In this document: piece by piece, positions 482 to 56,545 of the stretch
Numbering within the stretch: position 1 is the stretch's first letter
Layout of the letters: each line of letters starts with the position of its first letter
Source: Eledone cirrhosa
Taxonomy: Eukaryota
Length of the DNA stretch: 64,000 bases
Direction: 5' to 3'
Assembly: GCA_964016885.1 (NCBI GenBank)
Contig: OZ024742.1
Location: 23,126,001-23,190,000, forward strand
Notes under the pieces: model-generated
What the model was told of the DNA's origin: nothing
Database searches by the model: none
The model's input: the letters and a program-made list of their open reading frames with translations, nothing else
Made by a program: the position numbers and the translations under genes

Positions 482-790
482 ATTAGAAAGTGAGGGGTTT
501 TTACAAAATGAAAAATAACCGAGGTATCCTACACGAGTGAAAGTATAAAACAAAAGATGAAATCGAACATGCAACTGGAGTCTTTTTAAAAAAAAATATA
601 TATATTTATTTGGATCCTTTACCGGTTTCGCAGTTCTTCTGCTTTTCAAAAGTAGAGTTAAGATGGAGGGTCTGTGGTTTTTCTCACATCAGAAGAACTG
701 CGAAACCAGTAAAGGATCCAAATAAATATATATATTTTTTTAAAAATAAGACTCCAGTTGCATTTTCGATTTCATCTTTTTTTTTTTATA
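482..790. mobile_element. Head-to-head pair of PLE terminal-repeat fragments (family A) between (TA)n tracts
   Basis: 691-790 is the reverse complement of ~545-641; the left arm extends further to 482. Same family at 40492-40635 and 54377-54735. Contains an HHR-like motif followed by AATAAA. Confidence 0.8.
616..652 (-). ncRNA. Hammerhead ribozyme-like motif, U3-A8 core variant (family A)
   Basis: Minus strand: CTT-TTGAAAA-GCAG aagaa CTGC-GAAA-CCGGTA-AAG; palindromic stem III (ACCGGT), GUA cleavage triplet. Confidence 0.6.
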
Positions 791-1027
791 CACACATATA
801 TATATATATATATATATATATAAGAAGCAAAGAAAATTTCAAAGAAATGATAGATTTTCTGGTGGAAATTCAGGTGTACTCCGGGTTGGTATCCAGTTTC
901 GAGGTGAAAATTCAATCAGAAAATCCAACGAATTATGTCAACATGTATGGACATATTATTTTTATCTAAAGACATTTTTTCCAATTCCATCGCGCCCGCC
1001 CCCTTAATCTATTTTATTTCTTATTCT

Positions 1028-1064
1028 TTCTTCTGTTGAAGGACTAGCATCGGAAACGTTAAGA
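1028..1064 (+). ncRNA. Degenerate minimal hammerhead motif of a PLE 3' end
   Basis: TCTT-CTGTTGA-aggactagcatcg-GAAACGTT-AAGA; stem I TCTT/AAGA, core has one substitution, stem II decayed. Confidence 0.45.
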
Positions 1065-1627
1065 CCCTCTTCCTGCTATATCAAGGGTTAACCTAATATA
1101 TACCTTCAATATACTGTACCGATTGCGTTCTTATTTCTGTTTAACTTTTACATTAAATATATATATATATATATATAACATGTAGTTTCCCGAGTCGGGA
1201 ATTAGAAAAAGGTACTTAATTAATTGTTAGAGTATAGGCATTTTCATTATTTATATACCTGATGATATTATACGAAAGAAACAGATCTATTCCTGTAAAA
1301 GTCATTCTCTCTCTCTCTCTCTCTCTCTCTCTCTGTATACGCACACACACACACACACACAACCACACACACATACGTACACACGCACACACACACACAC
1401 TCGCACGCACGCACGCACGCACGCACACACGCACGCACACACACACACACACACACACACACACACACACACACACACACACACACATACACACACACAC
1501 ACACACATATATTAAATTAGCGAAAGATATATATATATATATATATATATATATATATATACAATAGCAGAGATCCGACGAGCTTTTGATTCCAGAGATG
1601 GGCAAGATCGATACAGATCGAACCATG

Positions 1628-1666
1628 CGCTGATCAATAGCGAAACGCGCGTCACCAATCAATAAA
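1628..1666 (+). ncRNA. Partial or variant hammerhead motif followed by AATAAA
   Basis: CTGATCA-atagc-GAAACGCGCGTC; palindromic stem III ACGCGCGT with GUC triplet, AATAAA 8 nt downstream. Confidence 0.35.
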
Positions 1667-3126
1667 CGTAATGAAGGCATCTCTCTCTCTCTCTCTCTCT
1701 CTCTCTCTCTCTCTCTCTATATATATATATATATATATATATATATATATATATATATATATATATATATATATATATATATATATATAAAAAAAAGAGG
1801 GGGCGGGAGAGACTAAATCGGAAAATTCCCTATCAGTACCACTTAAATCTAATTTGATGAAATTATTTGCCCCATTCAGATGTTCTGAAGGACACCACTT
1901 ATTGGAAGTAAAGGTAATTCATTTGGCGTCAAAATACTTCGAGATTAGATAAAATGATGAAATGGTTTCTGGAGGTTTCGACATAACGTTTTGAATATAA
2001 ATGATATATAATTCAATATAAGTTTGGGAATGGGAAATATGATACAATTATAGAATTCTTAGAGAAACATCGTTTCGCTATTTTACCCCAGAGTCAAACA
2101 TATGGGACTCACCGAGTAAAAACCATTGAGATCACAGTAATGAACTAAATTCAGTTTTTACTCTAATGATATTACATCAGTGTATTAAAGTACAACTTGG
2201 CCGTATAATGCAATATGGAAGCCATTGAAATGTATAGAAAGACAAGCAAGGTTAAGCTACGGTCATCTTCCCTGATGTAAATTGATTTTGAGAGAAAATA
2301 ATTTTATACTTTACATCAATTGGATATTCTCTGTACACTTGCGATCACCTCTTTGGAGAAAGCAACAGAAGACATGGAATCTATCATTAATAGTTTTGTT
2401 TGGTTTGGTTTTTCTCATTATTTTCTATGAAAACTACAGTCTGTAGGATAGCATAAAATTTCTTATTAACTATAGCCTCGGGACTTTTCACTATTGACCA
2501 GTTTCAGGTATATTAAAGATGGTTCAAGCAGTAGAACGATAATGCAAAAGGGAGTTGGTATTGTGATGCGATACACTAAATTCAGTTCCTGTTGATATCT
2601 CTTATTTCTTACTCCATCCTTCCTGCTAATAACCTCCATAAATATTTGTAACATATCTATTATTTAATTGGATATACCAGTCTTGCATATATAACAGTTG
2701 ATAGACAAAATGCCACACTTCATTCGCTTAACGTGTGGGGTGGAGCTCGTTATATCGGACCGAGGAAACAATGCTTCCATTGGTCTTTCCAATTGCTTAT
2801 AATATCTAACGGTCGCAAATCCAGGTAGGAGGAGCAACGTAAAATAAAATGAATTGCTCAAGGAAATAACGACTAGGTATACGGAATAACTTACAGATTT
2901 AGAATGATATAACTATATATAAGTCTAGGGTAATTCTAAATGTGTAAGGTAGCTCGCCTCTAGGGGTTGCATTGACGAACATTAAACTCTGGTATATATT
3001 ACTATCATACCATGAGTTGATTTTATTTGATTTATTCCTAATCCTTTCTATTCTGTTCCAAATAAAATTTGCTCCTATAGACGGGGCAAGTCACATTTGC
3101 ATCATTTTCTACAATCTATGCTACAG

Positions 3127-3210
3127 CATGACCCTCCCAAAGTATAACAATATCTGTGTCAACAGACGTTTTCAGATAGGAAATCTTGCAAAACAAATTC
3201 AAAAACGATA
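3127..3210 (+). mobile_element. PLE 3' tail containing the first codons of the ORF (MTLPKYNNI...), ending in (TA)n
   Basis: ATGACCCTCCCAAAGTATAACAATATC also at 4658-4684(-), 30015-30038, 30522-30547(-), 34237-34262, 40358-40384. Confidence 0.7.
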
Positions 3211-54189: not shown

Positions 54190-54309
54190 CAGTGACTGAC
54201 TGGCCTGATTTGCATATTAGCAGACTGGCTTATCAGTCCGATCTGCATAGTACTAGATCCACTGATCAGCAAGATTTGCATATCAGCAGACTGGCCAGTC
54301 AGTTTACTG
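54190..54309. mobile_element. Tc1/mariner-type MITE, 120 bp
   Basis: TA|CAGTGACTGACTGGCC ... GGCCAGTCAGTTTACTG|TA; internal direct repeat GATTTGCATAT(T/C)AGCAGACTGG. Confidence 0.65.
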
Positions 54310-54376
54310 TATACGAGCGTTGAATGGCCAGCTTTGCCATATTAGATATACATAAAAAAATAAATATATATATATA

Positions 54377-54735
54377 TAGAAAAAGAGATGAAATCGAAAA
54401 TGCAACTGGAGTCTTATTTTTTTTTTTAAATATATATATTTATTTGGTTCCTTTACCGGTTTCGCAGTTCTTCTGCTTTTCAAAAGGTGAGTTGAGATGA
54501 AGGGTCTGTGGTTTTTCTCACATCAGATGTGAGAAAAACCACAGCCCCTCCATCTCAACTCACCTTTTGAAAAGCAGAACTGCGAAACCGGTAAAGGAAC
54601 CAAATAAATATATATATTTTTAAAAAAAAATAAGACTCCAGTTGCATTTTCGATTTCATCTCTTTTTCTTTATACTTTCACTCGTGTAGGACACCTCGGT
54701 TATTTTTCATTTTGTAAAAAAACCTCACTTTCTAA
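54377..54735. mobile_element. Family A palindromic terminal pair (axis 54525) with two U3-A8 HHR motifs
   Basis: TTTCTCACATC-A-GATGTGAGAAA; plus HHR CCTT-TTGAAAA-GCAG aa CTGC-GAAACCGGTA-AAGG at 54563-54597. Confidence 0.87.
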
Positions 54736-54798
54736 TATATATATATATATATATATATATATATATATATATATATATATATATATATATATATATAT

Positions 54799-55220
54799 AA
54801 ACGTTTGGAGTTGGAAGGCCAAAACAATGCAGGTATGGATATAGAATATAAATACAAATGCAAAAGATATTGTTGACAATTAGTCATTTACCTTAATTTT
54901 ATTTGAACTTCCTTAATTTTCGAGATAATATCTCTTCTTCGCGTGGAAGTAAAGGGGTTAATCCAGTGTTCTAATGCTGTCAGCATGACTTGGCAAGCTA
55001 ATTAGAAAACTTGATTAACCCCTTTACTTCCCTCCGAAGAAGAGATATTATCTCGAAAATTAAGGATAGTCAAATAAATATAAGGTAAAATACTAATTGT
55101 CCAAAATATCTTTAGGATTTGTATATATATTCTATAACCATACCTGCATTGTTTTGGCCTTCCAACTCCAAACGTTTATACCTCATTACGCAATGCTTCA
55201 AGTAAACTACAATTTACTTA
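54799..55220. mobile_element. Head-to-head terminal pair related to the 25337-28242 family
   Basis: 54799-54975 mirrors 55001-55180; HHR remnant CCGAAGA-AGAGATATTATCTC-GAAAATTAAGG; right arm has a 40-nt tail. Confidence 0.82.
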
Positions 55221-55291
55221 TATATATATATATATGTATATTTACTTATATATATATATATATATATATATATATATATATATATATATAT

Positions 55292-56545
55292 AGTAATAAT
55301 AATAAATTTGACGACTAAAATCCAAAGAGGGCTCGATAAGGATAAATATATATCAAATATATAAGAGCCGTAGATCAAATAAAAGACCATGTGATCTCTG
55401 CGCCGCTGAGGCCCTGGAAATACTCTACGCCACAGACCACATCTTAAACAAAAAATCTGAGGCAATTTCGGCTTGTAGACATAAATTGTACAACACTTTC
55501 CTGTATTACAGCCCCACGTTATACCCTAACGGATAGTACGATCTATACGTGGATATTTTACGTCTTGATGTGGGAGCTAAGTATATGTTTTGCTTATACC
55601 TCTACTTATTTGCATAGGTAAGTATATATTACCCGTATGTTTTGTGAAGGTACGTATACCTTCTCGTACGTATATTTGATTGTTATGGCGTATAATTTTA
55701 TATATTCTGGTAAATATGGTTTGGCTATGTGTATACGGGAGTTTTGCGTCTGCGTGAGTATGCAGGTTCGTACGTATGTAGGGTGTGTGTATTGTGTACT
55801 TCATGTTTTGGTTGACTTACGTCTCCGAACATTCGTGTATTTACATGTAGGTATGTGTGTGCGCTTGTTATATACGTATTTATTAATTTATATACGTTTA
55901 TATAATTATTTATTTATTTGTATACACGCATACACACACACACATATTTATATGTACGTGGTTTTGTATACCTATGGTAAGGTTTTGCGTATGCTTGTGT
56001 ATGTACGTATTTGTTTGCGTGTATGTATTTATTTATTTATTTCTATTACTTCTGTATTGTATTTATTTACTTTGTTCTTAACTCTGTTGCGGAGATTCAT
56101 TCGGTCTCCTATTTAGAATTTTAGTCTACGACTTCTGCTATACCATTTACGTGGTTTTGACTTTGCGTGCTATTCTTCTCCACGCTCCTCATATGACGTA
56201 TTTTCTTCGTTTTTTTCGCTCATTGCCAGAGAACGTCTCTATGCACCACCAAAGAGTATATTAGTCTACGACCTCTTTTATACCATAAATGTGGTTCTGT
56301 CTTTGCACGTAATTGTTTTTCACCGCTCCTATTAATGACGTATTATATTCCTATTTTCCCGTTCTTCGCCAGCGAACGTTTCCACGAACCAAAGTATCGT
56401 CTCACTGTCTTCCTCAGGTTGCAACGTTTTTTGAAATATCCACTTCTGCGTTTACAGATTGACTTTGTTAATTTCAGAAGATCCCGTTAAGGGTGAAAGC
56501 AGCGATTCTTTGCTTAAACTTTAATCTGTTATTTTAATAAATAAA
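55292..56545 (+). mobile_element. Family N pair: inverted distal tail (55292-55380) + EN end and 3' UTR (55377-56545)
   Basis: 55377-56540 mirrors 51730-52885; junction shares AAAT. Confidence 0.88.

Follow-up and report, generated by a model that had tools for sequence, protein, structure and literature searches.

Why do Penelope-like elements (PLEs) that are inserted as head-to-head pairs end in one short and one long arm? The question is raised by a 64,000-nt stretch of the Eledone cirrhosa genome (GCA_964016885.1, OZ024742.1:23,126,001-23,190,000, forward strand, within a 3.0-Gb assembly), here called the window. A first-pass annotation had noted such asymmetric pairs in several PLE families of the window. 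In both the window and the sampled genome, nearly all pairs combine one end at a short site (S) with one end at a long site (L). The known PLE architecture is here unusually strict, long-tailed and marked by TA words, which favours one testable mechanism, namely twin priming from the two ends of a cut (TA)n target.

Short and long ends of the pairs

On self-comparison and alignment of the arms, each of the 13 listed pairs (nine named pairs and four of family N) proved to consist of inverted PLE arms with their 3' ends directed outward into TA runs. In every listed pair one arm stops at S and the other extends with a tail to L. The extra tail, described before as about 35-140 nt long, measures 34-139 nt. 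Its length by family is 61-66 nt (A), 63-71 nt (B), 43 nt (C), 78-80 nt (D), 34-38 nt (E), 132-139 nt (F), 42-47 nt (G), 40-43 nt (H) and 86 nt (N). Four TATA- or ATAT-like words quoted by the first-pass annotation were found in their places, and its two equal-ended exceptions (25337-28242 and 35863-35940) are both S+S. The arms of the longer window pairs are 84-99% identical, i.e. they have diverged by 1-16%, and the two outer flanks are unlike each other. Thus, the window pairs are not mirror chimeras, and they are unlikely to be fold-back chimeras.

The genome was sampled at even intervals with 79 regions of 10 kb each (790 kb in all, the random sample) and by searches with families E, H, F, G, C and A, from which the best 30 loci per search were taken (40 candidates scored out of 740-2861 each; the E query carried the tail). 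Pairs were counted with ten family references, and those with an inner TA run of at least 12 nt were excluded. This filter dropped three window L+S pairs and both window S+S pairs. Among the 130 distinct pairs 125 are L+S (96%), three are S+S and two are L+L (binomial p = 2e-31 against 0.5). All 29 pairs of the random regions are L+S. In these regions TA adjoins 122 of 130 family S or L ends, compared with 15.7% of random positions, so that the association with TA goes beyond chance. The TA-abutting ends are divided 63:59 between S and L. They comprise 58 ends in strict pairs, 24 with antisense partner sequence upstream, 13 solo arms, 21 unresolved ends and six at region edges. Accordingly, the rule proposed to hold across unrelated families is near-strict among pairs, but it is not universal, since insertions are not always pairs and solo arms make up 13 of the 122 ends.

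Each family has two fixed ends, with minor additional sites in C and G. Full-length tandems obey the same rule: in every example from E, A, G and N, L is found at one outer end and S at the other. A de novo scan yielded 81 candidates in 35 groups with recurrent tails of about 40 to 182 nt; after filtering it retains false groups, e.g. groups 5 and 14, which are internal TA runs. The pattern accounts for a common kind of hairpin, 150-500 nt long and TA-flanked, which might be mistaken for miniature inverted-repeat transposable elements or microRNA precursors.

Both L+L exceptions lie in one cluster of related family G copies (G000:C6:70.46-70.54 Mb; L173, L175, L177). At L209:1787-2039 the internal short-site word of an L arm is broken by a TA run and the pair is hence scored S+S. 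Some of the S+S exceptions may be of this kind.

Relation of the arms and origin of the pairs

The 5' extent could be resolved for 113 of the 125 L+S pairs, arms within 10 nt of each other being counted as equal. The arm with the greater 5' extent is L in 30 pairs and S in 37 (in 20 of them by at least 50 nt); 46 pairs are equal. In 12 pairs the L arm consists of little beyond the tail. An S arm that reaches further 5' was not copied from the L arm, and an L arm was not copied from an S arm that has no tail. In S-longer and tail-only pairs neither arm can thus be copied from the other, and two separately primed complementary DNAs (cDNAs) are needed. At the pair centres the BLAST ends overlap in 54 cases, are blunt in 10 and leave a filler in 49. 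Six of 17 fillers of at least 9 nt copy nearby sequence. These fillers and templated inserts fit end-joining of two ends.

Both start sites tend to carry TA words. At least three alternating T/A bases are common to the S junction and the partner template at 63 of 77 measurable junctions. Counted by family, a TA word of at least 3 nt is present at S in eight of nine families, where a best-phase null with the same templates predicts 1.7, and at L in six of eight (1.6 expected, p = 0.001). The L-site templates were taken from read-through copies, with one read-through each for B, C1 and H, that of H being a single locus; as G/H, N/F/D and E/A are related, the families are not fully independent in these counts. 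In the de novo groups such words are found in 11 of 18 (4.1 expected, p = 0.0003). The integration mechanism suggested in the first-pass annotation was shared, (TA)n-targeted, microhomology-primed and double-ended. Its (TA)n targeting and its two-ended origin are supported by these data, while base-pairing of the TA words with the primer is still an inference.

Partner arms are related beyond family membership. They have 195 minor alleles in common (about 63 expected), and the partner is the nearest relative of an arm in 33 of 105 cases (about 10 expected). Adjacent arms are from the same family in 69 cases and from different families in one. Allele sharing and the 69:1 ratio suggest one source, which may be one RNA or two RNAs of one active locus; the two are not separated by these data.

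Short pairs end 5' at a position that is constant within a family and either coincides with the hammerhead core or lies just upstream of it (for B and E, whose 5'-extent references are short, the values are reference limits). Measured from the long end, these boundaries cluster at about 209 nt in A, about 137 nt in D, about 158 nt in N and about 315 nt in F. From this clustering of 5' ends the RNA start is placed, tentatively, just upstream of the core. Hammerhead cleavage as the origin of the boundary is disfavoured, since the core upstream of the cut site is kept in the arms.

Fixed ends, L+S coupling, TA words, the greater length of either arm and overlaps or fillers at the centre are all directly observed. 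We consider it somewhat probable that they result from twin priming: both cut (TA)n ends prime at two fixed TA-matching sites, probably on one RNA, and the cDNAs are then joined end to end. The RNA would start in the pseudo-long terminal repeat (pLTR) just upstream of the hammerhead core, and long inserts would derive from tandem read-through RNA. A dimer of the reverse transcriptase-endonuclease (RT-EN) protein may bind near the start of the open reading frame (ORF), and its endonuclease would cut both target strands in (TA)n. Each freed TA end likely pairs with a TA word of 3-5 nt and would prime its own cDNA, at L or at S, with both cDNAs made on probably one RNA. PLE reverse transcriptases are not known to have RNase H. 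The L-primed RT may displace the S-primed cDNA, which would allow the arms to overlap. The two cDNA ends would finally be joined by microhomology end-joining, and a target end that fails to prime would leave a solo arm.

A broader proposal is more tentative and, in our estimate, falls a little short of an even chance. Twin priming could be the default, built-in route of TA-targeting, endonuclease-bearing (EN+) PLEs. Both strands would be cut by a dimer, which would then make two copies of one RNA from two dedicated words that match the target, with a primer alignment like that of telomerase. If this is true, tail and inverted pLTR arise together in a single event, and cDNA is joined to cDNA at every 5' junction.

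Several observations weigh against twin priming on one RNA. The 46 near-symmetric hairpins are also explained by fold-back, and most arms overlap by at least 100 nt, unlike those of inversions of the retrotransposon L1. L arms that stop at S show no significant excess (7 vs 3.8 expected, p = 0.09). The sharing of alleles between partners is not significant in three of ten families (C, F and N), and it could also stem from age, from a single active source or from gene conversion. TA words of at least 4 nt in the de novo groups are borderline (5 vs 2.2 expected, p = 0.054). A TA word is missing from the long ends of H and F (k = 1); these carry variable CT or GT dinucleotide stutters before the TA run (L111-L139 and L140-L169), possibly due to slippage at initiation, and the short ends of these families are clean. 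The short ends of family B are variable. Furthermore, in vitro initiation by PAc, a Poseidon element of the anole, is not homologous to the cut DNA, and the two strands do not differ in start site, according to the part of PMC11167929 available to us.

Two-ended priming as such is common to the favoured reading and to two alternatives. In the first, which is possible but doubtful, an asymmetric dimer primes one transcript at L and another one at S. Separate RNAs need no strand displacement, so overlaps that usually span hundreds of bases are readily accommodated, as is the missing excess of L arms that stop at S. This alternative does not account for partner arms that share minor alleles beyond permutation in seven of ten families, nor for the single heterologous pair of neighbours against 69 homologous ones, and strict L+S pairing demands an extra assumption of asymmetry.

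In the second alternative, which we regard as unlikely, the protein alone sets the start sites, and the TA words reflect endonuclease recognition or are AT-rich by-products that do not pair with the primer. The long ends of F and H, which are free of TA words, agree with this. A common RNA structure around S and L was looked for as well; z-scores ranged from -1.6 to +0.9, none of them significant, and no pairing feature common to the sites was significant, which is in favour of this alternative. The excess of TA words over the best-phase null at S and L, in four lineages and in unrelated tail sequences, is not explained in this way.

Fold-back of a single cDNA by self-priming, with the endonuclease resolving the hairpin at the TA word and trimming one tail (after PMC3846280 and PMC8557442), has a small probability. 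It accounts directly for one L and one S end, for the similarity of the S word to the TA target and for the 46 of 113 pairs that are near-symmetric with palindromic centres. However, it needs an S arm that lies within the L arm and is already contradicted for the 37 S-longer pairs; the 12 tail-only L arms go against it as well, and the fillers and templated inserts at the centres fit the joining of two ends.

That the asymmetry is secondary, produced by tail deletion between TA word and flank after insertion or by fold-back artefacts of long reads, is highly improbable: the one window junction tested (near 55377) was not seen in other runs and the two window S+S pairs could be tail losses, but random loss predicts many L+L and S+S pairs (2 and 3 of 130 were seen), the arms differ by 1-16% between non-mirrored flanks, and the family-fixed ends recur at dozens of loci on many contigs.

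Confirmation of junctions in independent reads, as called for by the first-pass annotation, was not obtained at either window pair examined (49388-51388 and 55300-55470). Reads at the former were mostly from paralogous copies, with a few exact contig pieces and none shown to bridge the pair centre. At the latter, depth falls to zero at 55378-55389 in the contigs of runs X1-X3, and no bridge was proven in run X8; these four runs are possibly from individuals other than the assembled animal.

Element lineages and published systems

Judged by their sequences, the families are EN+ PLEs of at least four distant lineages (E/A, N/F/D, G/H and C/C1), with protein identities of 19-30% between the groups. 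The presence of several PLE clades, with an RT, an endonuclease of the GIY-YIG type at the C-terminus and hammerhead cores, is thus in line with the first-pass annotation. Pfam matches to RVT_1 and GIY-YIG were obtained for E and A, and to GIY-YIG for the endonucleases of G and H. RT and GIY motifs of N and F were identified by pattern, the proteins of family N having no Pfam matches at all. The C1 endonuclease motif was also found by pattern, without a Pfam GIY-YIG match, and no ORF was found for family B. E and A have a CX4CxxC linker of the Neptune/Nematis type, with DKG in E. Hydra is defined in PMC8557442 by DKT, an RWK-like motif and a CxCX5C linker; N has all of these, F has DKT and the linker, and D has DKT and the RW motif. 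The clade names Hydra and Neptune/Nematis rest on motifs from that paper and not on an RT tree with reference elements. The endonuclease is C-terminal in all families with an ORF that could be read, which separates them from Naiad, where the endonuclease is N-terminal, DKA is present and a hammerhead is missing. Among the named homologs of one RT, the nearest (70% identity) comes from Octopus vulgaris.

A hammerhead core descriptor matches the window 12 times (1.0 expected), and nine of these matches are inside arms of B, C, C1, H and N. The descriptor found no core in the window arms of A, D, E, F and G. An Rfam scan gave no hammerhead, only microRNA-like hairpin noise. Read-through copies of E, G, N, D, F and C1 are pLTR partial tandems in which the tail runs into the ORF start, with units of about 3.3-5.5 kb; none was found for family A. 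In these copies S and L sit at the pLTR-ORF junction, with the ORF start between 26 nt before and 214 nt after S.

C/C1 (L290:1962-3645, plus strand; window 30785-33989, minus strand) combines a C-terminal endonuclease with an RT in which motifs A and B are separated by about 70 more residues than usual. The spacing of these motifs is 125 residues, compared with 53-56 in the remaining families. Among 58 homologs with both motifs readable, 43 have a spacing of 124-145, most of them with DKS where the region is present, and a strict downstream GIY pattern is found in 12 of the 43. In the part of PMC8557442 available, such RT insertions are reported only for elements with N-terminal endonuclease (about 20-40 residues) and for some Coprina. 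C/C1 is possibly an undescribed lineage.

By pattern search, seven family N long-end read-throughs about 151 nt apart were found at G000:C2:61196689-61197622. They form a pLTR-derived, retrozyme-like minisatellite.

The shape of the pairs is known from EN+ PLEs, which limits the surprise. According to the accessible text of PMC3846280, the tail is optional on one inverted pLTR, the head-to-head arrangement is the commonest, junctions are palindromic, and self-priming is proposed. PMC8557442, likewise in part, describes a tail of 30-40 bp that is often single-ended and is ascribed to endonuclease resolution; it also reports that Naiad and Hydra insert into (TA)n and that Neptune has a microsatellite bias. 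The insertions in these papers resemble those reported here in having a head-to-head 5'-truncated copy, palindromic junctions, a one-sided tail from the pLTR-ORF junction, partial tandems and a preference for (TA)n. The literature already covers the geometry, the tail on one side, the targeting of (TA)n and two internal sites at which the RT starts (PMC3846280, PMC8557442, PMC11167929), so that novelty of the inverted pLTRs, the one-sided tail and the (TA)n preference would be overstated. Published tails are 30-40 bp long and optional, whereas here they span 34 to about 180 nt, pairing is L+S in 96% and either arm can be the longer one. The available part of PMC8557442 names the origin of the inverted repeats and the one-sided tail as an open problem, and that of PMC11167929 leaves it unvalidated. 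A literature search, mostly of titles and abstract openings, returned no work that applies twin priming to PLEs or counts the coupling of L and S. Near-obligate L+S coupling, tails that reach about 180 nt and the presence of TA words at S as well as at L were not found in the literature searched.

The closest experimental system is PAc, for which the text available of PMC11167929 reports that both strands are cut and extended, that the tail is delimited by two internal sites of RT initiation, and that a dimer is predicted. Both systems share two start sites near the ORF start, an AT-rich target, the predicted dimer and a template that is not cleaved by the hammerhead. [quoted passage not shown] The L+S share of 96%, the greater length of either arm and the TA words at both starts make sharp predictions for this existing in vitro assay. 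Neither Poseidon of the anole nor Penelope of D. virilis is known as a strict TA targeter.

The layout of L1 twin priming is matched by the tail-only L arms. Such priming was reportedly described by Ostertag and Kazazian in 2001. In L1 inversions the second priming site is opportunistic, and the two pieces are not known to overlap. Here, in contrast, the second site is fixed, most arms overlap and insertion is chiefly two-ended; the L1-type signature of non-overlapping RNA parts is confined to the tail-only arrangement (12 of 113 pairs). As described in the accessible part of bioRxiv 10.1101/2024.12.14.628481, both target ends are extended on the RNA in L1 twin priming and the two cDNAs are joined as an inversion. 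Athena and Coprina, which are PLEs without endonuclease, use a telomerase-related RT helped by short target-complementary stretches beside hammerheads (PMC8557442, in part). They act on telomere overhangs, whereas the families here have GIY-YIG and insert internally.

Features of the window

Positions and strands of the pairs are compiled below.

PLE pairs and a read-through copy in the window (positions in nt from the first letter of the window; minus and plus denote the strand of an arm).
Feature	Position	Arms	Remarks
Family A pair	482-791	L arm minus 483-686, S arm plus 691-791	Neptune-type; family ORF in locus L289
C1 read-through copy	4196-4811	minus	template visible past long end; short site ~8 codons inside ORF
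Family H-like pair	25337-28241	arms ~1440 nt	S+S exception; RT thumb, GIY-YIG, hammerhead core
Family B pair	30271-30473	L arm minus 30271-30400, S arm plus 30407-30473	one hammerhead core per arm
Family C pair	30479-34262	L arm minus 30479-33989 with RT/EN body, S arm plus 33990-34262	tail 43 nt
Family D-like mini pair	35863-35940		S+S exception
Family D pair	37741-37935	S arm minus, L arm plus	tail ~79 nt; Hydra-type
Family E pair	42048-42552	S arm minus to 42280, L arm plus 42282-42552	1-nt loop; Neptune-type
Family F pair	45383-48249	S arm minus 45383-45524, L arm plus with EN end	tail 132-139 nt; Hydra-type
Family G pair	49388-51388	L arm minus to 50000, S arm plus 50001-51388	S reaches ~800 nt further 5'
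Family N pair 1	51470-51638	tail-only L arm minus 51470-51561, S arm plus	
Family N pair 2	51730-53628	S arm minus with EN body to 53365, L arm plus 53366-53628	Hydra-type
Family N pair 3	53737-53960	L arm minus, S arm plus	palindromic centre
Family A pair 2	54377-54735	S arm minus, L arm plus 54530-54735	
Family H pair	54799-55220	S arm minus, L arm plus 54980-55220	
Family N pair 4	55292-56543	tail-only L arm minus 55292-55381, S arm plus 1.16 kb	L1-like twin-priming layout

No partner was detected for an A short arm (40496-40636), two D long arms (44741-44776 and 44811-44935) and a G short arm (58130-58439). A probable diverged family B pair at 49235-49372 is absent from the list of the first-pass annotation. 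The D arm at 35577-35804 overruns the usual long end by about 45 nt. It is joined head-to-head to a plus-strand piece that resembles the 3' end of the Neptune-type element at 35982-37740, possibly as a mixed pair. An inverted repeat without TA flanks (4975-5253) is located just upstream of a GC-rich PLE-type RT frame (5245-6951). Tandem repeats of a unit about 48 nt long form a 12-kb array in the window (12169-24531).

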